The notes: generated by a model from the sequence alone, not told the origin. Counted from the stretch's first letter, positions 8,829 through 48,489 are shown. The stretch is 64,000 nt of DNA from Elusimicrobia bacterium GWA2_66_18 (GCA_001799675.1 MGTX01000001.1:1602-65601), one strand, 5' to 3'. A program made the numbers and translations.

Positions 8829-11525
8829 ATGAAAGAAAAGCAAGGATTCCTACTCGACGCGGCTATCGGACTTGTCTTGACCCTCGTCGTGGCCGGGAGC
8901 TACCTGACCGGCGAGTCCTTCCTGGCCGGCGTCGAGTTTAAGGCCTACGACCTCCGCGCCAAGCTCCGCCAGACGCTGAAGTCCCCGGACGAGATCGTCC
9001 TCGTCACCATCGACGACGAGTCCATCGCCCAACTGGGACGGTGGCCCTGGCCGCGCACGCGCGTCGCGGCGGCCCTGGACCGCATCTCCGCGGCGGGCCC
9101 CAAGGTTATCGGGCTCAACGTCCTCTTCTCCGAGCCCGAGCAGAACCTGGGGCTCATCGAGGTCAAACGTCTGGAGGAGCGCTACCGGGAACTCCTGTCC
9201 GACAAGAAGGTCGTGCAGAAGGGCGCCGACTTCACCGTTGAGTTCGCTTCCGCCGCCGCGGCCCTGGATTCGGACTCCAAGCTCCTGGCCTCCATCCGCT
9301 CCGCCGGCGACGTGGTGATGCCGCTCTTCTTCGCGCCGAACACGACCCACTCCAAGGTCGTGCCTGCTCCCGCCGAGATATCCAGTTCCGCGGTTCACGC
9401 CCAAGTGTCCGCCGACGCGGGGGTGACGACCCTTGAGAAGATGATCCCTCCCGTGCCCGCCTTCGCCGAGGCGTCGGCGGGCCTCGGGCACTCCAACCTC
9501 TTCGTTGAGGGCGACGGCGTGTTCCGCAGGGACGCGCCGCTGGTGCTCTACGATGGGGCCCTCTATCCCTCCTATGCTCTGCGTCTGGCCATGGCCTACT
9601 ATGGCCTGTCGCCTGCGGATGTGAAGTTCGTGCCGGGAGTCGAGCTCGCGGCGGGCCCCCTGCGCATCCCGCTCGACGGCGACAGCATGATGGCGGTCAC
9701 CTTCCTCGGTCCGCCTACCGCCGACACCATCAAGCGCGCATCCTTCCAGGCGGTGATGGGCGGCAACGTCTCTCCCGACTTCTTCAAGGACCGCATCGTC
9801 CTCATCGGCCCGACCGCTCTCGGCGTGGGCAGCAACTACATGACCCCGGTCGCCGGGGAGTTCACGTCCGTGGAGGTCGTCGCGCACGAGATCGAGAACA
9901 TGCTCCATAATCGTTTCCTCACGCGTCCGCCCTGGGCGCAGCAGTTGGAGTGGGGGATGATCGCGGTCCTCGGCTTCTTCATCATGTTCGTTCTGCCGCG
10001 CCTGCGCGCCTTCTGGGGCCTCATCGTCAGCCTCATCCTGGCCCTGGCCGTGCTCGGCGCGGGCACCTACTTCTTCGCCGCGGCGGGGCAGTGGGTCAAG
10101 ATCGGCTATGCGCTGGCCCTCCTGACCGCCGGCTACCTAGTGGTGGTCTCCAAGAGCTTCCTCGTCACGGAGAAGGGCAAGGAACTCGTCGAGGCCTCGG
10201 CCATCGAGACGAACAAGATGCTGGGCCTTTCCTTCCAGGGGCAGGGAATGTTCGACTTGGCCTTCGAGAAGTTTCGTCTCTGCCCTCTCGACGACAACCT
10301 CAAGGACACGCTCTATAACCTGGCCCTCGACTTCGAGCGCAAGCGGCAGTTCTCCAAGGCTGCGGCCGTTCTCGACCACATCGCGGCCAAGGACCCGAAA
10401 TATAAAGACATCGCCGCGAAAGCGGCGATGCTCAAGGCCGCCTCCGAAGGGGCCGTCTTCGGCGGCGTGGGCGGGAGCAGGAAGGACGGCACCGTGTTGA
10501 TCGCCGGCGGCGCGACCAAGCCCACGCTCGGCCGCTACGAGATCGAGAAGGAATTGGGTCGGGGGGCCATGGGCGTAGTCTATCTCGGACGCGATCCGAA
10601 GATCAACCGCATGGTCGCCATCAAGACAATGATGCTCGAAGAAGGCGGTGATGGCGAGACGACCAAACAGGTCAAGGAGCGCTTCTTCCGCGAGGCCGAG
10701 TCGGCTGGCACGCTCAACCACCCGAATATCGTGCGCATCTTCGATGCCGGCGATGAGAACGAGGTGGCCTACATCGCCATGGAGCTTCTCGACGGTCACG
10801 ACCTAGTCAAGTACGGGACCAAGGAAGGACTCCTTCCTCTGGACAAGGCCCTCGAATATATGGCCACGGTCGCCGACGCGCTGGACTACGCCCACGCCCA
10901 GGGCATCGTGCACCGCGACATCAAGCCCGCAAACATCATGCTGCTCAAGGACGGCTCGATTCGGGTGGCCGACTTCGGCATCGCGCGTATCACCGCGTCC
11001 TCCAAAACCGCGACGGGCACGGTCATGGGCACGCCCTCGTACATGAGCCCCGAGCAGGTGGCGGGCAAGAAAGTCGACGGCCGCTCCGATCTCTTCTCCC
11101 TGAGCACCGCTCTCTTTGAGCTTGTCACCGGAGAGAAACCTTTCAAAGGCGGCGACGGCATCGGCACGCTCCTCTTCCAGATCGCCAACGACCCGCATCC
11201 GGACCCCGTCGCGCTCAAGCCCGGCCTGCCGGCTTCGTTGAAGGCCGTCATCGACAAGGGCCTCGCCAAGAACCCGGACCAGCGCTTCCAGCGCGGCTGC
11301 GAGATGGCCGCGGCGCTGCGCGCCGTGCTGGCCGAGTTGAAGGGGGGTGCTTCCGCCGAGACCGTCCCGAATCCGGACAAGACGGCCTCCATCGGCCCCG
11401 AGATCATCATCCCGGGCATCAACGATCTGCCCAAGCCCGCTGCGGAGGCCACGGTGCGCATCAAGCCGGCCCAGAGTCCTGACGAGACCGTCCGTCTCAC
11501 GCCGAACATTCAGGAGCCGATATGA
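8829..11525 (+). CDS. CHASE2 sensor-domain Ser/Thr protein kinase
   Basis: N-terminal CHASE2 (..LGRWPWPRTRVAAAL..), TM helices, then a Hanks kinase domain (GRGAMGVVYLG..AIK, HRDIKPANIML, DFGIAR, GTPSYMSPE). Confidence 0.85.
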   Translation: MKEKQGFLLDAAIGLVLTLVVAGSYLTGESFLAGVEFKAYDLRAKLRQTLKSPDEIVLVTIDDESIAQLGRWPWPRTRVAAALDRISAAGPKVIGLNVLFSEPEQNLGLIEVKRLEERYRELLSDKKVVQKGADFTVEFASAAAALDSDSKLLASIRSAGDVVMPLFFAPNTTHSKVVPAPAEISSSAVHAQVSADAGVTTLEKMIPPVPAFAEASAGLGHSNLFVEGDGVFRRDAPLVLYDGALYPSYALRLAMAYYGLSPADVKFVPGVELAAGPLRIPLDGDSMMAVTFLGPPTADTIKRASFQAVMGGNVSPDFFKDRIVLIGPTALGVGSNYMTPVAGEFTSVEVVAHEIENMLHNRFLTRPPWAQQLEWGMIAVLGFFIMFVLPRLRAFWGLIVSLILALAVLGAGTYFFAAAGQWVKIGYALALLTAGYLVVVSKSFLVTEKGKELVEASAIETNKMLGLSFQGQGMFDLAFEKFRLCPLDDNLKDTLYNLALDFERKRQFSKAAAVLDHIAAKDPKYKDIAAKAAMLKAASEGAVFGGVGGSRKDGTVLIAGGATKPTLGRYEIEKELGRGAMGVVYLGRDPKINRMVAIKTMMLEEGGDGETTKQVKERFFREAESAGTLNHPNIVRIFDAGDENEVAYIAMELLDGHDLVKYGTKEGLLPLDKALEYMATVADALDYAHAQGIVHRDIKPANIMLLKDGSIRVADFGIARITASSKTATGTVMGTPSYMSPEQVAGKKVDGRSDLFSLSTALFELVTGEKPFKGGDGIGTLLFQIANDPHPDPVALKPGLPASLKAVIDKGLAKNPDQRFQRGCEMAAALRAVLAELKGGASAETVPNPDKTASIGPEIIIPGINDLPKPAAEATVRIKPAQSPDETVRLTPNIQEPI

Positions 11526-12412
11526 GGACCCAGGACGGCATCGAGACCTCGGGCGCGACCGATCCCGGATGCGTGCGAAAGAACAATGAGGACAATTTCG
11601 CCATCGAGCCGGAACTGGGCCTGCTGATTGTGGCCGACGGCATGGGCGGTCACAACTCCGGCGAGGTCGCCAGCGGCCTCGCGACCAAGGAGATCGCCCA
11701 CTACGCTCGCCAGATGCTCGGAGGTGAGAAGGTGCTGGTCCCCGAGGGCGGCACGCCGGGGCTGTCCGCCCGCGGCCGTCAGCTCGAGCTCTTCGTGAAG
11801 AGCGCCAACACTATAATCTACGAGAGGGGCCGGAACTATCCCAAGGATGCCGGGATGGGCACCACGGTGGTCGCGGTGCTGCTTGACGCCAAGTCCATGA
11901 CCGTTGCGCACGTGGGAGACAGCAGACTCTACCTGTGGCGCCAAAGGGAATTATCCCAACTTACTGAGGACCATTCTCTCGTGGTCGAGATGGTCAAGCG
12001 GGGGCAGATGACGGCCGATGACGCGTTGCGCTCGCCCCAGCAGAATATGCTGACCCGCGCCCTTGGGGCCGAGGGGGAGGTCCAGGTGGACGTAGCGGAA
12101 CACCCGCTCCTGCCGGGAGACTTGGTCCTGCTGGCGACCGACGGCCTCGCCAAGATGGTGTCCGACGCGGAGGTCGCGCGTGTCATTGAGTCTGAGGGCG
12201 ATGTCCGGAAGATCGTGGCCGCGCTCATCGCCAGGTCCCGCGCTGCAGGTGGGGTCGACAACGTTACGGTGGTCGCCGCGCGCGTACCGGCGCGCTGCGA
12301 GGGCTGGGTTGAGGGCCTAGTCTCGCGGTTATTCGGGCGAAGATGGGAAGATGGGGTCAGGCTTTCAAATCTTTCAAATTCCAAAGGGAATTTGAAAGAT
12401 TTGAAAGCCTGA
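11522..12412 (+). CDS. PP2C-family Ser/Thr protein phosphatase
   Basis: ..NEDNFAI..LLIVADGMGGHNSGEVAS.., ..GTTVVAVLL.., DGL motifs. Start overlaps the kinase stop (ATGA). The 3' end runs through the long hairpin, so the true stop may be earlier. Confidence 0.8.
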   Translation: MRTQDGIETSGATDPGCVRKNNEDNFAIEPELGLLIVADGMGGHNSGEVASGLATKEIAHYARQMLGGEKVLVPEGGTPGLSARGRQLELFVKSANTIIYERGRNYPKDAGMGTTVVAVLLDAKSMTVAHVGDSRLYLWRQRELSQLTEDHSLVVEMVKRGQMTADDALRSPQQNMLTRALGAEGEVQVDVAEHPLLPGDLVLLATDGLAKMVSDAEVARVIESEGDVRKIVAALIARSRAAGGVDNVTVVAARVPARCEGWVEGLVSRLFGRRWEDGVRLSNLSNSKGNLKDLKA

Positions 12413-12416
12413 CCCC
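12353..12416 (+). repeat. Perfect 30-bp-stem/4-nt-loop inverted repeat (hairpin) between the PP2C and FHA genes
   Basis: GGGGTCAGGCTTTCAAATCTTTCAAATTCC aaag GGAATTTGAAAGATTTGAAAGCCTGACCCC. The arms are exact reverse complements. Each arm contains a direct CTTTCAAAT x2. An AGGAGA RBS and the FHA ATG follow 24 nt downstream. Confidence 0.9.
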
Positions 12417-12439
12417 ATCCACATCCACAGGAGAACGCG

Positions 12440-13168
12440 ATGCCGAAGCTCTTGCTGAAGTTCAACGCTGCGGTCATTAAGGAGATCCCTTTCGACAAGG
12501 ACTCCCTCAGCGTCGGGCGCAAGTCCGACAACGACATCGTCATCGACAACCCCGCCATCTCGGGACATCACTGCCGCATCGTCCGCCAAGGCGGGACCTC
12601 CTTCGTCGAGGACCTTGAATCCACCAACGGGACCTTCGTCAACGAGAGGCGCATCAAGCAGTCGGGCCTTCATCACAACGACGTGATCGGGCTCGCGAAG
12701 CATGCCCTCGTCTTCATTGAGGACGCTCCTCCACCCGAGGACGCTCCCGCCCCGGCCGCCGGGCCAGCCGGCGACGCGACGATGGTGATCTCTCCGCAGA
12801 AGCAGGCGGAACTGGTGGCGGCCTCCACCGGCTTGGCCAAGCCGGTCGGCCTGACGAAGACGGGCTGGCTGCGCGTGCTCAAGGGCGCCGTCGGTCCTTC
12901 CGAGCACGAGCTCAAGGGTATGTCCACATATATCGGCAAGTCCGACCGGGTGCAGATCCAGATCAAGGGCTCGGGCCTGTTCGGTTCGGCCCCCGAGGTT
13001 GCCGCCTCGGTGCACCGCAAACCCGAGGGCTTCGTGTTGGTGGCCGTGACGGGCGGCTATCCTGTCGTCAACGGCAGCAAGGTCGCCGGCTCCGTCGTCC
13101 TTAATGAGGGCGACATCATCGACTGCGGCGCGACGACCATGCAGTTCGAGCTGCGCGACGCGGCCTGA
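12440..13168 (+). CDS. Tandem-FHA-domain protein
   Basis: First FHA: ..SVGRKSDNDIVIDNPAISGHHCRIV..STNGTFVN.. (G-R, S-x-H, N-G). Pro/Ala linker. Second FHA-like: ..GKSDRVQIQ..SVHRKPEG..VVNGSKV..EGDIIDCGATTMQFEL. Confidence 0.75.
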   Translation: MPKLLLKFNAAVIKEIPFDKDSLSVGRKSDNDIVIDNPAISGHHCRIVRQGGTSFVEDLESTNGTFVNERRIKQSGLHHNDVIGLAKHALVFIEDAPPPEDAPAPAAGPAGDATMVISPQKQAELVAASTGLAKPVGLTKTGWLRVLKGAVGPSEHELKGMSTYIGKSDRVQIQIKGSGLFGSAPEVAASVHRKPEGFVLVAVTGGYPVVNGSKVAGSVVLNEGDIIDCGATTMQFELRDAA

Positions 13169-17368: not shown

Positions 17369-18265
17369 ATGGCCATCATCCTCGATAAGGATTCGAAGAT
17401 CGTCGTCCAGGGCTTCACCGGTTCACAGGGCAGCTTCCACGCAAAGCAGTGCATGGATTATGGCTCACAGATCGTCGCCGGCGTGACCCCCGGCCGCGGC
17501 GGCCAGACCCACTTGGACCGGCCCGTGTTCAATACGGTCCACGATGCGGTGCGCAACACGGGCGCCTTCGTCTCGCTCATCTTCGTGCCGGCGCCGTTCG
17601 CCGCCGACTCGATCATGGAGGCCGTGGACGCCGGCTGCTCGACCATCATCAGCATCACCGAGGGCATCCCGGTCATCGATATGGCCAAGGTCAAGCGCTA
17701 TATCAATCAGCAAACCCTGTCTGGAAGAGAGATGACGCTGATCGGACCTAATTGCCCCGGCGTCATCACGCCCGGCCAGTGCAAGGCCGGCATCATGCCC
17801 GCATTCATCCACAAGCCCGGAACCATCGGCGTCATCTCGCGCTCCGGCACGCTGACCTATGAGGCCGTCGACCAACTCACTAAGCGAGGTCTGGGCCAGT
17901 CCACGGTCGTCGGCATCGGAGGCGACCCCATCGCAGGTTCGAACTTCTCCGACATCCTGGCCAAATTCGAGAAAGACGACGGCACCGACGCCATCGTCAT
18001 GATCGGCGAGATCGGAGGCTCGGCGGAAGAGGAAGCGGCCCGCTTCTTCAAGGAGAAGATGTCAAAGCCCGTCTTCGGCTTCATCGCCGGAAAGGCCGCC
18101 CCGGAGGGCCGCCGCATGGGCCATGCGGGCGCCATCATCGAGGGCGGCAGCGGCACCCACGCCTCCAAGATGAAGGCCATGCGCGAGGCCGGCATCATCA
18201 TGGTGGAGAACCTTTCCGAGATCGGCGAGACCGTCGCCAAATCCCGTCGCCCCTTGGCCGCCTAG
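17369..18265 (+). CDS. sucD: Succinyl-CoA synthetase alpha subunit
   Basis: ..[36 protein letters not shown].. with the catalytic His region ..[17 protein letters not shown]. Confidence 0.9.
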
Positions 18266-18903
18266 CGGCCCTGACTCTTCAGATATTTCTGGACTTCGGG
18301 GTTATTCTCGGCGCCCGGGGGCAGGTTCTTGAGCAGTTCCTGCATGTCCTGGCCGCCTTCCTGCCCCACGGGGGCGGTTTGCGGGCCGTTGCCGCCCTTG
18401 AAGCCGCTGAAGCCGCGGGTCGGTTGGAGCTTCGGAGCGGAGAAGTTCTTCTTGGTCTGTTTGGGCGTGGTCTTGGCCTTCACGGCGGGCGCGGGAGGCG
18501 GAGTCGGCGCGGGCGCCGCCGGGGTTTCAGCTTTGGGCGGTTCCGGGGCCTTGGCCTTCATGTCATCGGTCATCTTAATGAAGTCCAGGGAGGAGCCGGC
18601 GGGTGACTCTGCGCGGCCGGTCGCGCGGCGGGCGGACGAGGGGGCCGAGATGTTCGAGGGAACCGCGGTCTGAGAGGGCGTGATCTTGCGCTCGGAGCCT
18701 TCCCGGCGCTCAAAAAGGTCGTTGCGGCCGCTCGGGCCGCGGACGCTGCTTGCCTCGCTCCACTTGAGGTAGATGACGCCCATCAGTGGAAGGAGGAGGC
18801 AGACCGCGCCTCCGGCGAGCAGCCAGACGGTCCTCTTCTTGCGCGTCTGCTCGTGGTCATCCGGGGCAGGGGCGGCCATAGATGGGAGTGTATCAGGAGA
18901 CAC
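18262..18903 (-). CDS. Membrane-anchored Pro/Ala-rich low-complexity protein, hypothetical
   Basis: Single TM ([20 protein letters not shown]), then a PAPT/PEPP-rich tail. A true start may be an internal Met. Confidence 0.35.
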
Positions 18904-18930: not shown

Positions 18931-18958
18931 TTGACAAAAGCAACAATTCCGTTACACT
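18931..18958 (+). promoter_or_regulatory. Sigma70-like promoter candidate (TTGACA-N16-TACACT) upstream of the motor-like cluster
   Basis: TTGACA 18931-18936, 16-nt spacer, TACACT 18953-18958. About 170 nt upstream of the 19130 ORF. Confidence 0.35.
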
Positions 18959-19129: not shown

Positions 19130-20758
19130 ATGCCCGAAACTAAGGCGGGGGGCTTCGCCCCTGTGCGCGTTGCGCGCGCGTCGGCGCTCGTTGAGGCCGT
19201 CGCGCGCGCGTGTTTTTCTTTGGGGGCCCTTCTGGGGGCCCTCTGCTCACCAGTTTCGGCCCAGAGCGGCGGCCAGCCGGGCCAGTTCCTCAGCTATGGC
19301 GTCGGCGGCCGGGCGTTGGCCATGGGCGGCGCTTATTACGGTATCTCGGACGACGCTTCCGCCGCTTACTGGAACCCGGCCGGCCTGGCCCAGGTCCAGC
19401 GCAAGGAACTGACCACGATGCAGGCCACCCTCTTCCAGCAGACCAAGCTCACCTACTTAAGCTACGCCCACCCCACCAAGGGCGGATCCACCTTCGCCTT
19501 AAGCATGACCCAACTGGCCAACACCGGATTCGAGAAGGTGGACGTGATCTACAACCCGAACACGAACGAGCCCAAGACGGTCACCGCGAACGGATCCTTC
19601 AACGACGCTCAGCAGGCCATGTCCCTATCTTGGGCCAAGGGCGTGACCGAGACCATGCTCTTCGGCATGAGCGTCAAGCAGGTGACGCGCAAGCTGGCTG
19701 GTTCCTCGGACAACTTCAAGTCCCTGGACCTGGGCACGATGAAGACGATGGGGGCCTCCTATCGCCTCGGCCTCGGCATTCAGAACGTGTTCGCCATGCG
19801 CACCGGCGACACCGACGACAAGCTCCCCGTGACGATCAAGCTGGGCAATTCCCTGCGCCTCTTCAAGGAGCGTCTGACTCTCTCCGCCGATATCAATAAG
19901 GTCCTCAACGGCGATGTGGACATGCGCTTCGGCGGCGAGTACTGGATCGCGCGCTGGTTTGCCTTCCGTTTCGGATTGCTCGGCCTGCCCCGGATACAGG
20001 AGACCGACTTCGGCTTCGGGCTGAACTTCAAGAGCTTCAGCCTAGACATCGCGCAGGGCATACATGACCTCGGATCCAGCACGCGATTCTCCCTGTCCAT
20101 CCGCTTCGGCCAGTCGCGCACCGACCGCTCGACCGGCCAGGTCAAGAACTTCATCAAGCAGGGCATGGAGGCGTTCCAGGAAGGCAATTTCGCGCTTGCG
20201 GCGCAGAAGTTCAACCAGGCCCAGGATGCGGCTCCAGGAAATAAGCAGGTCGCGACCATGATCGCGCGCCTAAACAACGTGACGGGCTTTCTTCCCCAGG
20301 CGACCGGCGGCGAGGAGTCCCAGACCTTCGTGCGCAAAGGCGCGATCGCCTACGTGGACGGCCGCGACCTCAAGGTCGCGGTCAACTCCCTGCGTTACGC
20401 CTTCAATAAGAATCCTCGCGACGAGAAGCTCCTGGGCCTGCTGAATATGATCGAGAAGGAGGCCGGCGTGGCCGACGTCACGCGCCGTCTCGAGGGACCG
20501 GAGCAGTTCACCTGGATCGACCAGAAGGTCTTCGACGCTCGCCAGGCGGTCTACGACGGCCACTACGATTCCGCCGTGCGTCGCTCCCAGGACGTCCTGG
20601 ACCTTGAACCCAACAACGTGACCGCTCTTGAGATCATGGGCTCGGCCTTCTTCCTAATGGAGCAGAAGGACAAGGCCATGGCGGTCTGGCGGCGCGTGCT
20701 GGAGCTGGACCCCAGCAATCGCGCGGTGCGCGAGTTCATGCAGTCGGTCAGCCCGTGA
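19130..20758 (+). CDS. FadL/PorV-like outer-membrane beta-barrel domain fused to C-terminal TPR repeats
   Basis: Signal-like ..CFSLGALLGALCSPVSAQS. Hatch motif GGRALAMGGAYYGISDDASAAYWNPAGLA (compare FadL G-RA-SGE-AIADDAS--NPA-L). C-terminal barrel-like ..FSLSIRF. Then TPR-like helices to the end. Confidence 0.55.
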   Translation: MPETKAGGFAPVRVARASALVEAVARACFSLGALLGALCSPVSAQSGGQPGQFLSYGVGGRALAMGGAYYGISDDASAAYWNPAGLAQVQRKELTTMQATLFQQTKLTYLSYAHPTKGGSTFALSMTQLANTGFEKVDVIYNPNTNEPKTVTANGSFNDAQQAMSLSWAKGVTETMLFGMSVKQVTRKLAGSSDNFKSLDLGTMKTMGASYRLGLGIQNVFAMRTGDTDDKLPVTIKLGNSLRLFKERLTLSADINKVLNGDVDMRFGGEYWIARWFAFRFGLLGLPRIQETDFGFGLNFKSFSLDIAQGIHDLGSSTRFSLSIRFGQSRTDRSTGQVKNFIKQGMEAFQEGNFALAAQKFNQAQDAAPGNKQVATMIARLNNVTGFLPQATGGEESQTFVRKGAIAYVDGRDLKVAVNSLRYAFNKNPRDEKLLGLLNMIEKEAGVADVTRRLEGPEQFTWIDQKVFDARQAVYDGHYDSAVRRSQDVLDLEPNNVTALEIMGSAFFLMEQKDKAMAVWRRVLELDPSNRAVREFMQSVSP

Positions 20759-20787
20759 GCCCTCTCTGTCTAGGAGTCTTTCCTGTC

Positions 20788-20817
20788 TTGATTTCGTAAC
20801 AGTCTCCCCCTTACACT
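20788..20817 (+). promoter_or_regulatory. Promoter candidate (TTGATT-N18-TACACT)
   Basis: TTGATT 20788-20793, TACACT 20812-20817. Just upstream of the 20826 start. Confidence 0.3.
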
Positions 20818-20825
20818 TAATAGGA

Positions 20826-22835
20826 ATGCGTGCGTTCACCCTCGTGGCACTGTTCGCATGGCCGCCCTTCATCGGGGCGGCGGTCGCCGGCGTCGTCGCT
20901 CCCGACCTGGGACTGCTCCAAGAGCAGACGCGCATCAAGACGGAGTCGGAGTTGAAGATCCAGCGCGACGTTCTCGACCCCATCCTGGGCAAGGGGAGGA
21001 GCGCCTCCTTCGTGGACGTAGAGATGGAGGTGAAGGTCGAGAGCGAGGAGAAGACGAGTTCGGGCATGGGTCTGGCCGAGAAATACAAGGAGAAGGCCCC
21101 GGCGGTGCGCGGCGGCATGCAGACGACTTTCGTGCTCCCCGGCATCCCGAAGCCTAAGACCATCATCCAGGGTCCGCAGACACCGTTACGGCCGGAGCAG
21201 TCGCAGGCCCAGCAGGCCCAGCTGATCAAGGGTGTCCAGGAGGAGCGCTACGCGCTTAAGCCCGTCTTCAAACGCCTGCAGGTGACCGTGATGCACGATG
21301 ACGGCGTGCTCAAGGAGAAGGCGCAGGTGGAGTTGGTGCGCACGCGCATCGTAGAAGCGATGGGCCAGTACAGATTGACCCCGGACCAGGTCGCCTTCCG
21401 GCCGACCAAGTTCGACAAGCCCCCCCTGATGGACTGGAGGGAGGACTTTAAGAAGCCGTCCGTCTATCTGCCCCTTCTTTATGCTCTGCTGTTCCTTCTT
21501 TTCCTGTCCTTTCTATTCGGCCCGCTGGCTCGATTCTTCCGCCAGTATATTGCCGCCCTTAAAGAAGAGAAGCCTCCGTCCGAGGTCTCCGTCGACTCGG
21601 AGAACGAGGGATTAAACGAGGGGCAGGGAGAAGGCGGTGAGGACCATATATCGAAGGGCGCACTCGACATCATGCTGGGGCGAAAGCCGCCGGAACTGCC
21701 GCCGCCGCCCGAGGAGGATGAAGCCATGAAGAAATTCGAGCCGTTCACCTACATCAACGAGGAGAACTTCAAGCGCCTCGGCAACCTTTTCCTCGTGCGT
21801 CAAGACGAGCCGTGGCTGATCTGTGTGGTGCTGAGCTACCTCAAGCCCGAGCTCGCCCGTGCGACTCTGACCTCCTTGCCCATCGAGCTCCAGGCCAAGG
21901 TCGCCATCGAAGCGCTTAAGCTTCGCCAAGTCACCCGAGAGCAACTCATGGCCATCGACGCCGACATCAAGGAGAGCGTGGACTTCGTCGTGGGCGGCAT
22001 GGAGCGCCTCACCCGGATGCTTGACGAGGCCGACAGCCAGACGCGCTCCAATATTCTCGAATATTTCAAAAATGAAAAGCCCGAGGCGTATCAGCGCGTG
22101 CGCCTGTTTATTCTCATCTTCGAGGATATGGTCTCCTTCCCCGACCGAGACATGCAGACCATCGTGCGCGAGCTTAAGACCGAGACGATGGCCAAGGCCC
22201 TCCAGGGCGCTTCCCCCGATGTGGTCAACAAGTTCGTGAGCAATATGTCGGCGGGCGCCGCCTCCCTTCTCAAAGAATCCATCGAGTACGCTCAGGGCCT
22301 GACTGCGGCCCAAGTCGAGGAGGAGCGCACCAAGATCATGGAGGTCGTGAAGGCGCTCGAGAAGGAAGGTAAGGTCAACGTGCGCCAGAACCGTGCCGAG
22401 GCCTTCTCCGGTTTCCATGAGGAGGTCGCCAGCGAGCGAGGGGAACAATACGCACCCCGCACGCGCGCGGCCGAGCAGGCCGTGGCGCAACTGCTTGGCG
22501 GGCCGACCGCCGGGCCGGCCGCTGGGCCGGCCGCCGCGCCGGCCGCCGCGCCGGTCGCCGCGCCGGCGGTCGTCAACACGGCTCAGGCGCAGCAATATCT
22601 ACAGGCCGGCATTCAGTCCCATGACGCGGGACAGTTCCCGGAGGCCGTTCAATATCTCGAGTACGCTATTTCCCAGGACGCGGCTCTGTGGCAGGCCCGG
22701 CAGTATCTGGGGAACTGCTATGTGCAACTGGGGCGCACGACGGAAGCCATCGCCCAGTTCGAGCAGGTCCTCGCGTTCAATCCTGATCCGGGACTGCGGC
22801 AGTGGGTGGACGGCATGAAGACACAGACGGCTTGA
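20826..22835 (+). CDS. FliF-like (periplasmic ring-building-motif + TM) protein fused to a FliG-like middle/C-terminal torque domain and C-terminal TPRs
   Basis: N-terminal hydrophobic segment. Periplasmic region with a FliF/YscJ-like ..ELKIQRDVLDPILGKGRSASFVDVEMEV... TM helix LPLLYALLFLLFLSFLF. Cytoplasmic FliG signature ..LKTETMAKALQGASPDVVNKFVSNMSAGAASLLKESIEYAQGLTAAQVEEERTKIMEVVKALEKEGKV.. (compare FliG ..ALKG..FLSNMSQRAAEML.DLE.MGPVRLSDVEEAQKKIV..LAEEGKI). Ala/Pro linker, then TPR. Confidence 0.65.
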   Translation: MRAFTLVALFAWPPFIGAAVAGVVAPDLGLLQEQTRIKTESELKIQRDVLDPILGKGRSASFVDVEMEVKVESEEKTSSGMGLAEKYKEKAPAVRGGMQTTFVLPGIPKPKTIIQGPQTPLRPEQSQAQQAQLIKGVQEERYALKPVFKRLQVTVMHDDGVLKEKAQVELVRTRIVEAMGQYRLTPDQVAFRPTKFDKPPLMDWREDFKKPSVYLPLLYALLFLLFLSFLFGPLARFFRQYIAALKEEKPPSEVSVDSENEGLNEGQGEGGEDHISKGALDIMLGRKPPELPPPPEEDEAMKKFEPFTYINEENFKRLGNLFLVRQDEPWLICVVLSYLKPELARATLTSLPIELQAKVAIEALKLRQVTREQLMAIDADIKESVDFVVGGMERLTRMLDEADSQTRSNILEYFKNEKPEAYQRVRLFILIFEDMVSFPDRDMQTIVRELKTETMAKALQGASPDVVNKFVSNMSAGAASLLKESIEYAQGLTAAQVEEERTKIMEVVKALEKEGKVNVRQNRAEAFSGFHEEVASERGEQYAPRTRAAEQAVAQLLGGPTAGPAAGPAAAPAAAPVAAPAVVNTAQAQQYLQAGIQSHDAGQFPEAVQYLEYAISQDAALWQARQYLGNCYVQLGRTTEAIAQFEQVLAFNPDPGLRQWVDGMKTQTA

Positions 22836-22859
22836 CGAGACGACTCAGGAGAGACAACC

Positions 22860-25319
22860 ATGGCGCCTGAAGATCAGATTCCGCCGCCCCTGCCGCCTTC
22901 GGCCGGGCGGCCTCCGGTACCGCCGCCGCTGCCCGGCGCCGTCAAGCTGCCCGTGGCTCCGAAGCTGCCCGGGCGGCCGCCACTGCCCGGGATGGGACAG
23001 ATCGTTCCCCCGCTGCCCGGCGCTCGGGGCGCGCCGCCGCCGGCGCCTCCCTCCGGCTTTGGCGCGCAGGCGCGCGAGGCGGAGAAGGAGTCCGAGTCCA
23101 AGCTTGAGAAGGTCAAGGATGAGTACGAGAAGCGGATGTCCCAGCTGGAGCGGCGCCTTCAGGATGAACGCGAGAAGACGCTTGTCAACCAGATCAAGAG
23201 CCAGGAGGAGCAGGTCACGGCCGCCAAGGTCGAGGTCAGCCTAAAGGAACTTCAGGACCGGCTCCGTCGCGATCGTCGCGATCAGGACCAGGAGGAAGCG
23301 AAGGCCAAGCTCGAGAAGCGCGCCGAGGAGTTGGAGACGCGCCTGGCGCAGGAGCGAGAGACCTGGGTCGTCACCCTCAAGAACCAGCTTGCCGCCCGCG
23401 AGGGGCAGGATAAGGAGGTCGAAGTCCACTTTGCCATGCGCATCCAGGAGATGGAGCGCCGCTGGCTGGAAGAGAAGGCCAATTGGCAGCGGGTCGCCAT
23501 GGCCAAGGACGAGGAGATCCGCACCCTGCGTTCCCTGGCCGAGAAGCTCAAGGGCGCCGACACGGAGCTGTCGAAGATCTCCATGGAAAAGAAGATCCTC
23601 GATGAGAGGGTGACCGAGCTTTCGAAAGATCGAGCCGAGGCCTTGGCGCGCCTGCATAACGCCTCCGAGAGGGAGAATGAGTCCATCCAAATCAAGGCCG
23701 AACTTCTGCTTTCTCGCCAGCAGGCGGCGATGATCCAGGAGAGGCTCGAGCGCGATCTGGCGTCCCTGCGTTCCAGCGCTCGCGAACGCGAGGAGCGTCT
23801 GCTTGCCGACCAGGAGCGCCTCCAGCGCGATCTGGCCACGGTCAAACAGCGCTTCGATGCCGAGAAGGACTCCGAGTTGCGCCGCGTGAAGGTCGAGAAT
23901 GAGGCCGACCTGGCCCGGCACAAGGAGGCAGCGGAGCGCGCCAACGCCGAGCTTCAGCGCCTGCGCGCAGTCTGCGGGGCGCTCGAACAACAGGCCGCGT
24001 CATCCGTCGCCCAAATCAATGAACTTAAGAGTTCATCGGAGGAATTGAATAAGACCCAGGAATACTATAAGGCGGAGTTCGTGGTGCTCCAGCGCAAGTG
24101 GGTGGAGCGCGAGAAGGAGGTTCGTGCCGAGGTCGCGGAGCAGTCCCTTCAAAAGTGCGTCGAGAAGGACGCCGAGTTGCGGCGCGTGAAGATTGAGTAT
24201 GAGGCCGACCTGGCCCGGCACAAGGAGGCAGCGGAGCGCGCCGGCGTCGAGCTTCAGCGCCTGCGCGCAGTCTGCGGGGCGCTCGAACGGCAGGGCGCGT
24301 CCTCCCGCGCCCAACTCGATAAGCTCAAGCGTTCGTCGGCCGAATGGGAGAAGACCCAGGAGCGCTACAAGGCGGAGTTCGTGGTGCTCCAGCGCAAATG
24401 GGTGGAGCGCGAGAAGGAGATCCGCGCCGAGGCCGCGGAGAAGTCCCTGCAGATGCTCGAATCCGAGAAGACCCGGCTCAAGATCATGGCGCAGGCCGAG
24501 ATCAATGCGCGCGCGGCGAAGATCTCCGACCAACTGCGCAAGGAAACCGAATCCGCGAAGAGCCGACTCGAGGGAGATCTGCGCGTGGAGCTCGAAGGCG
24601 AGTTCCAGATCCGGCTCCAGGAACTGAAGGTCGAGAGAGAGGCGGTCCGGACGCAGCTCGAAAATGAAATCTCGCGCCTGCGGCGGGAGTCGGCCCAGAA
24701 GGAGGCGGCTTGGTCCGAAAGACTGCTCGCCAAGGAATCCGAGGTCATCGCCTCCCGGACCTGCGCAGACGAGGCTGCGAGGCGTCTGTCTCTTGAGGAG
24801 GAGTCTCGCCAGGCCGCAGACCGCAGGGCTTTCGAACTCGAAAAGTCGGTCCAGGACGCCCGGGAGCAGGGGACGGTCCTACAGAACTCCCTGCGGGCAT
24901 TGCGGCAGCGACTAGAGGAAGCGGAGGCGGGCACGGGACGTCTCGAGCGCGAGAAGACGGAGTTCGAACGTCTGTTCAGCGCGCAGTCGGCCCAGGCGCA
25001 GTGTGTTCAGGAGTCTCTGGAGCAGGCACGAACCCAGCTGGCGCGCGAGTCGCAAAGCGCCAAGATCGCGCAGAACGCGCTCGACCAAGCGGAGAAATCA
25101 CTTGGCTCCCTACGACAGGAACTGATCCTTAATACGCAGGCGCAGAAAACCGAGTTCGAACGGGCTCTTGCCCAGAAGGATCAAGAGATCTTGCAGCTGA
25201 TCGCGCAGGCGCGGGAGCTCCAACTCGGGCGCGAGCGGCTCGCGGCGGAGGCCGCGGGCAAGGCGCGAGAACAGGCGCAATCGAGCGCCTCGGACCTGCC
25301 GGAGCAGGGGGGCTCATGA
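22860..25319 (+). CDS. Giant coiled-coil protein with N-terminal polyproline (PPLPG x4) region
   Basis: 819 aa. The first ~60 aa are Pro-rich (PPPLPG, KLPG, PPLPG, PPLPG). The rest is E/R/K/L/Q-rich heptad coiled-coil with a 100-aa internal duplication. Confidence 0.6.
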   Translation: MAPEDQIPPPLPPSAGRPPVPPPLPGAVKLPVAPKLPGRPPLPGMGQIVPPLPGARGAPPPAPPSGFGAQAREAEKESESKLEKVKDEYEKRMSQLERRLQDEREKTLVNQIKSQEEQVTAAKVEVSLKELQDRLRRDRRDQDQEEAKAKLEKRAEELETRLAQERETWVVTLKNQLAAREGQDKEVEVHFAMRIQEMERRWLEEKANWQRVAMAKDEEIRTLRSLAEKLKGADTELSKISMEKKILDERVTELSKDRAEALARLHNASERENESIQIKAELLLSRQQAAMIQERLERDLASLRSSAREREERLLADQERLQRDLATVKQRFDAEKDSELRRVKVENEADLARHKEAAERANAELQRLRAVCGALEQQAASSVAQINELKSSSEELNKTQEYYKAEFVVLQRKWVEREKEVRAEVAEQSLQKCVEKDAELRRVKIEYEADLARHKEAAERAGVELQRLRAVCGALERQGASSRAQLDKLKRSSAEWEKTQERYKAEFVVLQRKWVEREKEIRAEAAEKSLQMLESEKTRLKIMAQAEINARAAKISDQLRKETESAKSRLEGDLRVELEGEFQIRLQELKVEREAVRTQLENEISRLRRESAQKEAAWSERLLAKESEVIASRTCADEAARRLSLEEESRQAADRRAFELEKSVQDAREQGTVLQNSLRALRQRLEEAEAGTGRLEREKTEFERLFSAQSAQAQCVQESLEQARTQLARESQSAKIAQNALDQAEKSLGSLRQELILNTQAQKTEFERALAQKDQEILQLIAQARELQLGRERLAAEAAGKAREQAQSSASDLPEQGGS
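23863..24462 (+). repeat. 300-bp tandem duplication (2 copies, ~85% identity) inside the coiled-coil gene
   Basis: The copies start with GAGAAGGAC(T/G)CCGAGTTGCG. Identical 40-50-bp blocks (GAGGCCGACCTGGCCCGGCACAAGGAGGCAGCGGAGCGCGCC; GAGCTTCAGCGCCTGCGCGCAGTCTGCGGGGCGCTCGAAC). They encode DSELRRVKVENEADLARHKEAAERA.. and DAELRRVKIEYEADLARHKEAAERA... Confidence 0.85.
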
Positions 25320-25540
25320 TTACGCTTCATAAGCTGAACGGCGCGGAGATCGTGGTCAACGCGGAGCTCATCGAGACCCTTGAGCCAGGGCCTCAGACCG
25401 TGGTGCATCTTGCGACCGGCAACAAGGTCCTCGTGGCGGAGAAAGCTGACGAGGTCGTGTCGAAAGTGGTGGAATACAGGAAAGCCGTCAACGCGTTGGG
25501 CAAGGCCGTCAACCCGATCGCGGGCTACGAGCGCGGTTAG
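25316..25540 (+). CDS. flbD: Flagellar FlbD-family protein
   Basis: 74 aa. MITLHKLNGAEIVVNAELIETLEPGPQTVVHLATGNKVLVAEKADEVVSKVVEYRK closely matches FlbD (MIKLTKLNG.EF.LN.D.IE.IE..PDTVI.L.NGKKY.V.ES.EEVV.KI.EYR). Overlaps the upstream stop (ATGA). Confidence 0.8.
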   Translation: MITLHKLNGAEIVVNAELIETLEPGPQTVVHLATGNKVLVAEKADEVVSKVVEYRKAVNALGKAVNPIAGYERG

Positions 25541-25560
25541 GCGCAGGAGAAGAACCCCTC

Positions 25561-26370
25561 ATGGACATCGCAACCATCGCCGGCATCTTCGTTTTTCTGG
25601 GGCTGACCGTCGCGTCGATCTACATAGGAGAAGGAGTGGCCGGCTTCAAGCCATTCCTGAACCTGGAGGCCCTGCTCATGGTCATGGGCGGGACCTTGTG
25701 CGCGACTCTGGTCAACTACCCGCTCTCCCAGGTCATCGGCGTGGGCAAGATCATCAAGAAGACCCTCCTGTCCCACGGCGAGGACAACTCGGACATCGTC
25801 GTGACCTTTGTCAACCTTGCGCAGAAGGCCAAGAAGGAGGGCTTTCTGTCCCTGCAGAGCGACATCAAGAACATCAAGAACGACTTCCTGCGCCGCGGCG
25901 TCCAGTTGGTCGTGGACGGCGCCGACCACGAATTCATCCGCAACATGCTCGAGACCGAGATTGGCTTCATCCGCGAGCGCCACAAGGGCGGCCAGGAGAT
26001 ACTCAACGCGATGGGCACCTATTCGCCCGCCTTCGGCATCATCGGCACCGTGCTGGGCATGATCTTGATGCTCTCCTCGATCGATGACGTCGCCGCGGTG
26101 CCGCGCCGCATGGCCCTGGCCCTGGCCGCCGCCTTCTACGGTCTAGGCTCGGGCTACCTCCTGTTCCTGCCGATGGGAGGCAAGCTGCGCCGCCGTTCGG
26201 AGGAGGAACTTCTGATCAAGGAGATCGTCATTCGCGGCGTCCTGCTCCTACAGAGCGGCGCCACGCCTTCGGTCGTGGAGGCGAACCTCAAGGCTTACCT
26301 GGCGCCTTCGGATCGGATCATCTTCAAGGGGGCGATTGCCCCGCCCCCCGCTGGAGGCGGGACCGCCTAA
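25561..26370 (+). CDS. motA: Flagellar stator protein MotA/PomA family
   Basis: Four-TM MotA/TolQ/ExbB topology. ..YSPAFGIIGTVLGMILMLSSIDD.. and ..ALAAAFYGLGSGYLLFLPMGGKL.. are typical MotA TM3/TM4 blocks. Confidence 0.85.
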   Translation: MDIATIAGIFVFLGLTVASIYIGEGVAGFKPFLNLEALLMVMGGTLCATLVNYPLSQVIGVGKIIKKTLLSHGEDNSDIVVTFVNLAQKAKKEGFLSLQSDIKNIKNDFLRRGVQLVVDGADHEFIRNMLETEIGFIRERHKGGQEILNAMGTYSPAFGIIGTVLGMILMLSSIDDVAAVPRRMALALAAAFYGLGSGYLLFLPMGGKLRRRSEEELLIKEIVIRGVLLLQSGATPSVVEANLKAYLAPSDRIIFKGAIAPPPAGGGTA

Positions 26371-26379
26371 GGTCCGCCT

Positions 26380-27123
26380 ATGCCCTTACGCGCTCCGCGG
26401 GGCTTCATCGACGAGTCGGACCCCAAGGTCTGTCAGATCGGCCATCCGGCTCCGCCCTGGCTCGTCAACTACGCCGACCTCATGACGGAGTTGGTCTGCT
26501 TCTTCGTCATCCTCTACGCCCTCTCCGCGGCCCTGAACAAGGACGTTCAAAAAGCCTCGAAGGACGTCAAGGAGATGATGGACAAGGGCGAGCTCAAGGG
26601 CGAGGTTAAGATCGACAAGGACGGCCTGAAGATCAGCATCGAGGAGCAGGGCATGGCCGGCTTTTTCGAGAGCGGCGCGGCGGAGCCGACCAAGGAGATG
26701 GATTCGAAGTTGATCCTGCTGGTTCCCTCCCTGCGCAAGCTGACCGAGGACCACGAACTCCTCGTCGAGGGGCACACGGACAACCAGGGCATCCACAACG
26801 CCTACTTCGACTCCAACTGGGAACTCTCCACCGCGCGCGCCACCAGCGTGGCGCGTCTGCTCATCGAGAAATACGGCATCCCCGGCGGCCACGTCGGCGC
26901 GGTGGGCTATAGCGACACGAGGCCGATCGTCGTCAACGATACGCCGGAAAATCGCACGAGAAACCGCCGCGTGGTCTTCTTCATCAAGAGCGCCTCCATC
27001 GGCAAGAAGGCAGCCGCGACCAAAGGGGGCGAGGGCAAGCCCGGTGCGGCCGCCGCGCCGCCCGCCCCGGCGGCCGGGGTCCCAGTCGAGCCGGCGCCTC
27101 AGGCGGCGCCGAAAAGCGGGTGA
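26380..27123 (+). CDS. motB: Flagellar stator protein MotB (OmpA-like peptidoglycan-binding C-domain)
   Basis: TM with the conserved Asp (WLVNYADLMTELVCFFVILYAL, compare MotB W.VTFADLMTLL..FF..LY). C-terminal OmpA-like ..LLVEGHTDNQG..YFDSNWELSTARATSVARLL..VGYSDTRPI..NRTRNRRVVFFI. Confidence 0.85.
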   Translation: MPLRAPRGFIDESDPKVCQIGHPAPPWLVNYADLMTELVCFFVILYALSAALNKDVQKASKDVKEMMDKGELKGEVKIDKDGLKISIEEQGMAGFFESGAAEPTKEMDSKLILLVPSLRKLTEDHELLVEGHTDNQGIHNAYFDSNWELSTARATSVARLLIEKYGIPGGHVGAVGYSDTRPIVVNDTPENRTRNRRVVFFIKSASIGKKAAATKGGEGKPGAAAAPPAPAAGVPVEPAPQAAPKSG

Positions 27124-27127
27124 TCAA

Positions 27128-27853
27128 ATGATAGAATACATCGTGAGCCGCCGCCTCATCTTTATCGTGATCCTGACAGCGTTTGCGGTCGCCTGCGGGC
27201 CTTCGAACAAGAACGTCGTGGTCGAGGACTTCGCCGAAGGCCGCGTGGTGGACTTGGCCATCACCGAGAAACTCACGGGCAACACGGAGTTCCTCCTTTT
27301 CTCGATGCCCAAGAAGACGCAGTTCCTGGACGGCTATGTCCAGGGCGTGATCACGGACTACAAGGACAACCCCATCCAGGGCGTGGTCGTGCGCGCGGTC
27401 GCCAGCGGCGAGAGTTCGGAGGAGGAGGGGGAGGCTCGTCCTTCCGGGTTTGCGACCAGTTCTTTCGACCCGGGCGTATCCGACACTAACGGCTTCTACC
27501 GCATCCGCTTCAGCCTGCCCATCTTGAGCAGGAAGGTGGATGTCCGCGGGCGCATGCTCTATAACCCGGGCTGGGAGCAGGAACGCGACAACCTGGGCAA
27601 GGCCTACGAGCCCCAGACCAAGCAGAGCCAGTTTCGCCTCTACTACGACCGCAAGAACGGTCGCATCATCTTCTCCGAGGGCGTGCGCAAGACCGTCGTG
27701 GCCGCCGTGACCGCCAAAGGCGTTCCGAAGTCCGTGCCCCTGCCCGGGGTCAAGCCCCCCGAAGAGGCCAAGCCCGCCGTGGACGCCGAGAAGGAGAAGA
27801 CCTCGGGCAAGGGAGACGACGACCTTTTCAAGGGGTTCGGCTTCGGCCAATGA
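27128..27853 (+). CDS. Lipoprotein, hypothetical (last gene of the mot-like cluster)
   Basis: Lipobox-like ..ILTAFAVACGPS. No family recognised. Starts 4 nt after the motB stop. Confidence 0.5.
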   Translation: MIEYIVSRRLIFIVILTAFAVACGPSNKNVVVEDFAEGRVVDLAITEKLTGNTEFLLFSMPKKTQFLDGYVQGVITDYKDNPIQGVVVRAVASGESSEEEGEARPSGFATSSFDPGVSDTNGFYRIRFSLPILSRKVDVRGRMLYNPGWEQERDNLGKAYEPQTKQSQFRLYYDRKNGRIIFSEGVRKTVVAAVTAKGVPKSVPLPGVKPPEEAKPAVDAEKEKTSGKGDDDLFKGFGFGQ

Positions 27854-43891: not shown

Positions 43892-43921
43892 TTGACAAAT
43901 CAAGGGGCGGGGGGATACACT
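43892..43921 (+). promoter_or_regulatory. Promoter candidate (TTGACA-N18-TACACT)
   Basis: TTGACA 43892-43897, TACACT 43916-43921. ATG of the TPR-kinase at 43928. Confidence 0.4.
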
Positions 43922-43927
43922 GCCGAG

Positions 43928-45544: not shown

Positions 45545-45593
45545 GCCGCGCGGGGCCGATGGGTAAAAGCGCGGTAAAAGCAACTCGTTTGCC

Positions 45594-45622
45594 TTGACAA
45601 CTTCCGGGGGTCCCCTTACACT
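45594..45622 (+). promoter_or_regulatory. Promoter candidate (TTGACA-N17-TACACT)
   Basis: TTGACA 45594-45599, TACACT 45617-45622. ATG of the second TPR-kinase at 45630. Confidence 0.4.
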
Positions 45623-45629
45623 TGCGGAT

Positions 45630-48126: not shown

Positions 48127-48484
48127 GGGGGTGAATCAGCTTCGACAGATGTCGTTGAGCCGAAGGTCGCAGGCCTGGGTTGGTCAGGGCCCAGTCAAAA
48201 CCGGACCAAACAACAACTGCCAACACTCAGTTGGCTTGGGCCACTGCCTAACACGCAGTGAGCACACGCCGGTCCTCGACACCTGCTGGAGGGTCGCCGG
48301 CGTCAAGAGCAGGGTGCGGTCCTTCCCCGTGATCCCGTGGGCGGGGGGCCTAAGACCGAACGGGATTAGCCCGGGGAGCACGCGTCCGTCGGTTTTCCCC
48401 GGGCGAAATCAAGGACGGGCTAAGCCTGTAGTGACCCCGGTCGGCGCCGTTTGGACGCGGGTGCAAATCCCGCCACCTCCACCA
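48127..48484 (+). ncRNA. ssrA: tmRNA (SsrA)
   Basis: 5' GGGGGTG pairs with the 3' CACCTCC-A-CCA acceptor. The 3' tRNA-like T-arm is GGACGCGGGTGCAAATCCCGCC. An internal tag-like ORF ends ..GCC AAC ACT CAG TTG GCT TGG GCC ACT GCC TAA (..ANTQLAWATA*) at 48249-48251. Length 358 nt. Confidence 0.8.
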
Positions 48485-48489
48485 CTTTG

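Follow-up and report, generated by a model that had tools for sequence, protein, structure and literature searches.

The closest described relative of the system considered here is the core of the bacterial flagellar motor, consisting of FliF, FliG, the MotA5B2 stator and FlbD/SwrD. To our knowledge, work on this rotor (FliF/FliG) and stator (MotAB) has treated them only as components of the flagellum, which is built around a type III export apparatus. Subsets of flagellar genes are also kept without a flagellum, as with the orphan FliF, FlhA and FliI of the non-flagellated chlamydiae, but these belong to the export apparatus. The locus described here shows the opposite: its export genes are missing and the torque-generating parts are kept. 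It is a cluster of seven genes (g1 to g7) at positions 19130-27853 of a 64,000-nucleotide stretch of DNA (hereafter the window) from Elusimicrobia bacterium GWA2_66_18 (GCA_001799675.1, MGTX01000001.1:1602-65601). With a probability of roughly 0.6, we take this operon to encode a stand-alone, export-less rotor–stator motor that derives from the flagellar basal body and is coupled to the outer membrane.

The homology with the flagellar motor core covers the third ring-building motif (RBM3) and beta-collar of FliF, the middle and C-terminal domains of FliG (FliG_M and FliG_C), MotA, MotB and FlbD, with the same membrane topology and one of the MotA–FliG charge pairs kept. In contrast to the flagellum, the 64 kb hold neither an export apparatus nor rod, hook, filament, FliM/FliN, FliG_N or RBM1/2, and FliF and FliG form one polypeptide with an added tetratricopeptide repeat (TPR) domain, with other residues in place of the FliM-binding EHPQR motif and of four of the five torque-helix charges. 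It is also accompanied by different partners, namely a coiled-coil protein, a lipoprotein and a PorV-like barrel of the outer membrane. Covalent joining of FliF to FliG is itself known from engineered or spontaneous fusions in Salmonella and Vibrio, which form MS-ring-like rings (PMC10941966; PDB 8z4d and 8z4g). Those are laboratory fusions of full-length proteins within a complete flagellum, whereas the present fusion is natural, drops RBM1/2, the C-terminal tail of FliF and FliG_N, and was recovered in our survey only from Elusimicrobia-titled or unclassified metagenome-assembled genomes (MAGs).

Two non-flagellar systems share single features with the operon. Bacteroidota's type IX secretion system (T9SS) and gliding machinery (GldLM 5:2 motor, GldKN ring, PorV/PorP/SprF barrels, and cargo with a C-terminal sorting domain (CTD), for example SprB) likewise combines an ion-driven 5:2-type motor in the inner membrane with a FadL-like barrel of the PorV family, and giant or CTD-bearing surface proteins are encoded beside the cluster in its sister clades. 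The motor, however, would here be MotAB on a FliG ring instead of GldLM, and Pfam scans of the window found no SprA/Sov, PorK/N, PorL/M (GldLM) or CTD cargo. The rings of SpoIIIAG and of the injectisome proteins SctJ/SctD share the alpha-beta-beta-alpha-beta fold of the ring-building motif with an inserted beta hairpin, but are static scaffolds of secretion or feeding channels and have neither FliG nor a stator.

For the phylum, a preprint on magnetotactic Elusimicrobiota (10.1101/2022.07.08.499144) surveyed motility genes by KEGG and found a complete flagellar set in only few members, while most free-living Elusimicrobiota lack structural flagellar genes yet carry motAB, flbD and fliG, in a role called enigmatic. 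The fusion, the FliF module, the operon and the PorV-like partner are not reported in that preprint. Beyond it, full-text literature searches returned no description of this system, of FliG/MotAB outside flagella or of an Elusimicrobia T9SS, and two recent evolutionary studies, on MotAB and on the ancestral flagellum, do not mention Elusimicrobia. The locus had originally been predicted to match no described system; this stands as regards the system itself, although the co-occurrence of motAB, flbD and fliG had been mentioned once, in the 2022 preprint. What would be new here is the flagellar motor principle in a non-flagellar, export-less setting coupled to the outer membrane.

The seven open reading frames (ORFs) all lie on the plus strand, and their checked coordinates bear out the co-directional, tightly packed cluster of the original prediction. 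Spacers of 67 nt (g1-g2), 24 nt (g2-g3), 20 nt (g4-g5), 9 nt (g5-g6) and 4 nt (g6-g7) separate the genes, g3 and g4 overlap by 4 nt, the stop of g7 overlaps with the following gene's start, and no convincing terminator was seen within the cluster. A Pfam scan covered approximately 47 ORFs of the window, the seven of the cluster and about 40 further ones. None was flhA/B, fliPQR, fliI, flgB-G, flgE or fliC, and the non-cluster ORFs encode metabolic, signalling and cell-wall functions with no other flagellar gene among them, as had been claimed for these 64 kb. An ordinary flagellar operon was considered and rejected. Genome-wide, the lack of flagella is taken solely from the phylum-wide survey of the preprint, our own scans having covered the 64 kb and 10-kb flanks of related loci.

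The g2 protein is a natural fusion of FliF (RBM3, collar and second transmembrane (TM) segment), FliG (M and C domains) and a TPR domain, without RBM1/RBM2 and FliG_N. Its parts follow one another as TM1, FliF RBM3/beta-collar, TM2, a disordered acidic linker, FliG_M, FliG_C, a Pro/Ala linker and the TPR, and the whole protein is 100% identical to the hypothetical protein DCZ01_10510 at NCBI (MAG, Elusimicrobia bacterium). The FliG-like assignment of the original prediction is confirmed by Pfam (FliG_C 1.3e-23, FliG_M 1.3e-7) and by a match to Thermotoga maritima FliG_MC (1lkv, 2.4e-29), in which the Gly-Gly linker and the armadillo-repeat (ARM) architecture are kept. FliG_N is absent, the weak Pfam match to it falling inside the M/C region. 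The FliM-binding EHPQ is replaced in the g2 family by a conserved [DE][DE]PW, with Trp in 76 of 80 sequences.

As to the FliF-like half, profile searches of g2 itself left the N-terminal 300 residues without a family. Two hydrophobic segments (residues 3-26 and 210-239) bracket about 180 residues; this is the topology of FliF and places the FliG part in the cytoplasm. An AlphaFold2 model built from 62 homologues (predicted local distance difference test (pLDDT) 67.8, with 70-95 for the periplasmic elements and the FliG/TPR parts) predicts a helix at 28-54, a long hairpin at 59-78, a disordered insert, strand structure at 137-157, a helix at 165-182 and a strand at 189-195. These elements make up the alpha-beta-beta-alpha-beta order of a ring-building motif into which a hairpin is inserted, with TM helices on either side. 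In a Foldseek comparison of this model with the PDB, FliG_MC ranked on top (4fhr, 1.3e-10), followed by Salmonella and Vibrio MS-ring entries over RBM3/beta-collar (6scn, 6sd1, 6sd3, 7d84, 8ftf and 8z4d; E 2.5e-4 to 3e-3, probability 1.0, approximately 180 aligned columns). Since a full-length alignment searched against the PDB was swamped by TPR matches, the N-terminal 250 residues were used alone. This profile matched FliF at 1.8e-5, over Salmonella residues 239-292 and 358-442, which are the two RBM3 halves, the only other non-marginal match being SpoIIIAG (9e-4). Furthermore, of 28 divergent members of the g2 family, 11 match Pfam YscJ_FliF_C (best 4.2e-10). A conserved LPGxPxPK motif lies at the tip of the collar-like hairpin, with L104, P105, G106 and P108 invariant or nearly so. 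The FliF-like claim of the original prediction thus holds for RBM3, the beta-collar and the two TM helices, but not for RBM1 and RBM2, to which no region of the g2 sequence or model corresponds, the periplasmic part being only about 170 residues long.

The fusion extends to the relatives of g2. Residues 1-300, searched as a single sequence against 1.84 billion representatives, returned only 78 clusters with about 30 long matches, mostly of 600-705 aa. FliG_M and FliG_C are present in 27 of the 28 sequences aligned from these (the window's g2 included). Every full-length relative has the fusion, and the orthologues are not ordinary separate FliF and FliG, in keeping with the original prediction. 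One family member (P0175/P0204) lies on a 4.9-kb contig binned as 'Thermoprotei archaeon'; the binning is probably erroneous, because the protein has the full bacterial architecture. Clusters of the distant clades are otherwise labelled 'bacterium' and, in one case, 'Elusimicrobiota'.

The stator genes are of the flagellar type throughout. The g5 protein matches Pfam MotA_ExbB (1.6e-27) and, over its full length, the NCBIfam MotP/PomA/MotA models (approximately 1e-61 to 1e-64) and the stator structures of Clostridium sporogenes, Bacillus subtilis and Vibrio (4.6e-53 to 1e-43), the best being C. sporogenes MotA (6ysf/8ucs, 4.6e-53 over residues 2-255). It has four TM-like segments, with Pro156 of TM3 and Pro204 of TM4 present in 63 of 63 orthologues. 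The g6 protein matches MotB_plug (9.3e-12) and OmpA (1.2e-14), and its TM aspartate is found in 60 of 60. The pair thus has the make-up of a flagellar-type stator, including the expanded cytoplasmic torque-generating domain of MotA, as the original prediction had it for MotA/MotB with the TM Asp, and with Asp33 and both prolines invariant the stator should conduct ions. The NCBIfam scores remain below the equivalog cut-offs, marking g5/g6 as a divergent member of the flagellar-type stators, the 'FIT' group of PMC12505986. A Tol/Exb-type stator was rejected, MotA/B being clearly of the flagellar type. The FlbD identity of g4 is likewise confirmed (Pfam FlbD 2.1e-22; orthologues 43-88% identical), while sequence searches of g4 against the PDB gave only TPR or spurious repeat matches.

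At the rotor–stator interface of E. coli, as described in PMC7564593 and PMC12505986, MotA R90 pairs with FliG D288/D289 and MotA E98 with FliG R281. Of these complementary pairs one is kept in the g2/g5 families, as Lys/Glu, and the other is lost on both partners (Table 1). That one pair is strictly kept and the other gone from both sides suggests an interface that still interacts but has been remodelled, since decay would not keep a pair. Conserved motifs specific to the family, [DE][DE]PW, Gly477 and LPGxPxPK, have newly arisen.

The outer-membrane partner g1 matches the NCBIfam PorV/PorQ family (PorV_fam, 1.4e-29; 103.8 bits against a cut-off of 90), below the equivalog cut-offs for PorV and PorQ themselves. 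The barrel spans residues ~52-326, behind one N-terminal hydrophobic signal segment, and Pfam adds UPF0164 and TPR matches. The FadL-like barrel–TPR protein of the original prediction is upheld through the PorV/PorQ family and the TPR, the Pfam FadL/Toluene_X match itself being sub-threshold; against the PDB, sequence searches of g1 gave only TPR or spurious repeat matches. In almost every locus that extends far enough upstream, g1 adjoins g2 on its 5' side, and the homologue in locus L004 scores 160.8 bits against PorV_fam. In a sister clade, all 13 of the 13 loci whose DNA reaches upstream of the PorV-TPR gene carry, directly 5' of it, a gene for a product of 6952 aa or more that contains an fn3 domain and ends in a T9SS type A sorting domain (TIGR04183, above cut-off). 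Two other distant loci have, within a few kb of the cluster, CTD cargo genes paired with barrels of the PorV or PorP/SprF type. PorV-family barrels bind T9SS sorting domains (PMC5562754), so that, taken with these giant and CTD-bearing neighbours, the machine may move, secrete or anchor large surface proteins, as a functional analogue of GldLM-driven gliding and secretion. This link is one of neighbourhood, and CTD cargo stands beside the cluster in distant clades but not in the window's own.

Neither g3 nor g7 was assigned a family by Pfam or NCBIfam profile searches. The g3 protein consists to 67% of E/K/R/Q/L/A, has no TM segment and contains 37% Pro in its first 70 residues. Its best-conserved block is residues 120-240, and residues 336-535 (window 23865-24464) are a 100-aa tandem duplication with copies 77% identical, present as a single copy in orthologues. 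For g7, the lipoprotein assignment of the original prediction is retained on account of the lipobox (...AVAC), with the start corrected to what is most likely ATG 27128 and not GTG 27044. A fold search found only a generic transthyretin/carboxypeptidase-regulatory-like beta-sandwich, which says little of function. The highly conserved C-terminus ...DLFKGFGFGQ follows a disordered Pro/Lys-rich linker and could be a docking peptide for a barrel or a TPR domain.

Conservation was followed in one genome per GTDB species, with an alignment of the core clade as query. The survey is biased toward close relatives by this choice, diverse alignments lacking a sufficiently conserved stretch. It yielded 78 loci, including one on the complete 3.8-Mb chromosome CP096137.1; 69 are titled Elusimicrobia, Elusimicrobiota, Elusimicrobiales, Elusimicrobiaceae or (one) Candidatus Endomicrobium, and 9 only 'bacterium'. 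All seven genes occur in the window's order in 41 of the 49 loci long enough to judge, which bears out conservation of the neighbourhood; three lack g7 only, and the remaining five are the separately fetched distant-clade loci L003, L004 and L083-L085. The flanks vary by lineage, sucCD and iscS-mnmA standing beside the cluster only in close relatives. MotA is the best-conserved gene (69-92% identity, mostly 72-91%, where g2 is 39-80% identical), and g7 is limited to the core clade. In the distant clades, where g2 is 24-30% identical, the genes that are kept form a trio, in which the PorV/UPF0164-TPR barrel and the FliF-FliG-TPR fusion are joined by a coiled-coil or TPR protein 830-1634 aa long, a large coiled-coil gene lying 3' of g2 in all clades. 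The trio is followed on its 3' side by FlbD-MotAB in one clade and by MotAB without FlbD in another. The annotated 10-kb flanks of seven related loci contain no export, rod, hook or filament gene, the sole flagellar-named gene there encoding a FlgD Ig-like domain protein 5' of g1 in L083. In L003, a Roadblock/LC7 (MglB-like) gene lies 3' of the coiled-coil gene.

Table 1. Features of the operon and its surroundings (window positions unless a related locus is named) and residues corresponding to the E. coli rotor–stator charges
Feature	Position	Strand	Description
Membrane protein	18262..18903	-	213 aa; divergent from g1; single-pass, Pro/Ala-rich; without Pfam family
Promoter-like site	18931..18958	+	TTGACA-16-TACACT; sigma-70-like; consensus scan, 10/12 matches, a pattern match alone; ~170 nt 5' of g1
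g1	19130..20758	+	542 aa; PorV/PorQ-family outer-membrane barrel with C-terminal periplasmic TPR
g2	20826..22835	+	669 aa; FliF-FliG-TPR fusion
g2, FliF-like ring-building domain	20907..21410	+	Residues 28-195; periplasmic
g2, FliG middle and C-terminal (torque-helix) domains	21738..22394	+	Residues 305-523
g2, cytoplasmic C-terminal TPR	22578..22829	+	Pfam TPR_19/TPR_2/TPR_1; pLDDT >90
g3	22860..25319	+	819 aa; cytoplasmic coiled-coil, Pro-rich N-terminus; no family
g4	25316..25540	+	74 aa; FlbD (SwrD-type small stator-associated protein)
g5	25561..26370	+	269 aa; flagellar-type MotA (PomA/MotP-like)
g6	26380..27123	+	247 aa; MotB with plug, TM Asp33 and OmpA-type peptidoglycan-binding domain
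g7	27128..27853	+	241 aa; lipoprotein; no family
MotA R90 equivalent	Lys91 in g5		Lys 59/61
MotA E98 equivalent			Gln 49/61; Glu 12/61
FliG D288 equivalent	Glu484 in g2		Glu 80/80
FliG R281 equivalent			Gly 79/80
FliG D289 equivalent			Ser/Ile/Ala/Thr, uncharged in almost all; Glu 4/80
FliG R297 and K264 equivalents			Uncharged in almost all; Lys 4/80 at the K264 position
Giant T9SS-sorting-domain protein	L004 1-7919; also L086-L103
CTD cargo/barrel genes near distant-clade clusters, with the Roadblock/LC7 gene of L003	L003 1-5327 and 15798-16145; L085 1-2632

The divergent membrane protein upstream of g1 is kept directly 5' of it in 32 related loci and may be an accessory, eighth component. 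Farther away, an insertion sequence transposase (DDE_Tnp_1_4, 3e-46) is encoded at window 4831-6141, approximately 13 kb 5' of the cluster. Eukaryote-like signalling genes are plentiful at window 8829-13168 and 43892-48074, with a CHASE2-Ser/Thr kinase, a PP2C phosphatase and an FHA protein encoded consecutively and two TPR-Ser/Thr kinases in tandem. A PP2C-FHA pair also precedes the cluster in the related locus L002. Two adjacent genes for GGDEF diguanylate cyclases, one with a GAF domain, lie at window 48451-51104.

Put together as a motor, the parts would work as follows. The g2 protein would assemble through RBM3/beta-collar into an inner-membrane ring resembling the S-ring portion of the MS-ring. 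The RBM1/2 layers, in which the export gate is housed, would be missing, and their loss would fit the lack of such a gate. Rings of the FliF type comprise about 33-34 subunits. Beneath the membrane, the ring would display a crown of FliG_MC for which FliM/FliN would not be needed, and the covalent fusion would, as we propose, make FliG_N and the FliF tail unnecessary. Engineered FliF-FliG fusions do form rings (PMC10941966; PDB 8z4d). Stators of the MotA5B2 type, assisted by FlbD and anchored to peptidoglycan through MotB, would pass ions along the Asp channel, and their MotA pentamers would turn around the MotB dimers and push the FliG_C torque helix, mainly through Lys91 of MotA and Glu484 of g2. 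The turning or stepping ring could then pass its work to the periplasm through the collar and its LPGxPxPK tip, with the periplasmic TPR of the g1 barrel as the likely receiver. On the cytoplasmic side, the g2 TPR and the Pro-rich coiled-coil of g3 probably replace the lower C-ring (FliM/FliN) as scaffold or anchor. The output may consist in moving or handling surface proteins that the PorV-like barrel binds. The minimal MotAB-powered, envelope-spanning machine of the original prediction is supported in this by the profile hidden Markov model assignments, the fusion in relatives and the gene order, with rotation as a deduction from them. A narrower version, namely an undescribed self-contained rotary machine in which MotAB spins a FliF-FliG ring with no secretion apparatus or axle, and this ring works a PorV-like barrel holding CTD-type or giant surface proteins, is put forward tentatively, at rather less than even odds.

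Several observations weigh against a stand-alone rotary motor. Ring formation and rotation are predicted from sequence and models, and the AlphaFold2 models are only moderate (pLDDT 67.8 and 59.7). No axle is encoded, and for a spinning ring a barrel that sits in the outer membrane would be an odd load. The window scan found no fliM/fliN, and the replaced EHPQR motif comes with no identifiable stand-in for FliM/N. With the equivalents of FliG K264, R281, D289 and R297 unconserved, that is four of five classical charges, the interface is unlike the flagellar one. Three distant-clade loci have no MotAB within 10 kb. In addition, a few Elusimicrobiota do have complete flagella according to the preprint (10.1101/2022.07.08.499144), and this genome was examined over 64 kb.

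Some of these observations would suit a non-rotary energiser of the Ton/Tol kind, in which ion flow through MotAB pulls or twists the FliG-like domain of g2 and alters its periplasmic conformation. The change in g2 would open or load the g1 barrel via its TPR, to take up hydrophobic substrates or release cargo, without a continuously rotating ring. The membership of g1 in the FadL/PorV superfamily and the absence of an axle or bushing gene are in keeping with this, and other 5:2 motors (ExbBD, TolQR) power outer-membrane processes (PMC9389320); the stator, however, is flagellar-type, with a plug and a peptidoglycan-anchoring OmpA domain, and not TolR/ExbD-like. Most torque-helix charges are lost and MotAB are not always adjacent in the distant clades, but the Gly-Gly linker and ARM architecture of FliG are kept, and the periplasmic domain of g2 is specifically the ring-building RBM3/collar known from FliF and SpoIIIAG, whose rings are large, with approximately 30 or more subunits each. 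We regard such an energiser as unlikely.

The gene order flbD-motA-motB is also that of flagellar operons in spirochaetes, and the cluster might be read as an alternative motor module, or an accessory one, for a genuine flagellum encoded elsewhere, supplying an extra stator set and a specialised rotor or collar part. The g2 protein lacks RBM1/2, FliG_N and the FliM-binding motif, however, so that it cannot substitute for or dock onto a normal MS/C-ring, and the invariant partners in the operon are the PorV-like barrel and the coiled-coil protein, not flagellar proteins. Complete flagellar gene sets do exist in a few Elusimicrobiota, but in the same survey most free-living members keep these genes without structural flagellar proteins (10.1101/2022.07.08.499144). 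The DNA examined, 64 kb of this genome and 10-kb flanks elsewhere, leaves room for a distant flagellum, yet neither the rest of the window nor the annotated flanks of the seven loci contain a gene of the flagellar apparatus, and we consider this reading quite improbable. A decaying, functionless remnant of a lost flagellum, which the apparent loss of flagella in most lineages of the phylum (10.1101/2022.07.08.499144) and the degradation of several canonical FliG residues might evoke, is so implausible as to be effectively refuted as a pseudogenised relic by the conservation data: the reading frames are intact here, the gene order recurs in 41 of 49 species-level loci, no variation is seen at the ion-path residues, MotA stays 69-92% identical across lineages with changed flanking genes, new family-specific motifs have arisen, and the domain fusions and new gene neighbourhood point to gained function, not decay.

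If the operon does encode a rotary machine, the torque-generating module is able to persist and evolve apart from the type III export core, and the locus would offer a direct test of modular flagellar evolution, asking whether rotation is separable from secretion. With perhaps five to seven proteins, it would represent a minimal natural rotor–stator that invites structural and single-molecule studies of torque, and its reduced charge interface of one Lys-Glu pair bears on which stator–rotor contacts are truly required. For the organisms themselves, it would provide a flagellum-derived engine that moves surface proteins (gliding-like motility) or drives secretion, in a phylum regarded as mostly non-motile, and could explain the motility or surface-protein handling of flagellum-less Elusimicrobiota, including the magnetotactic ones whose motility has been called 'enigmatic'.

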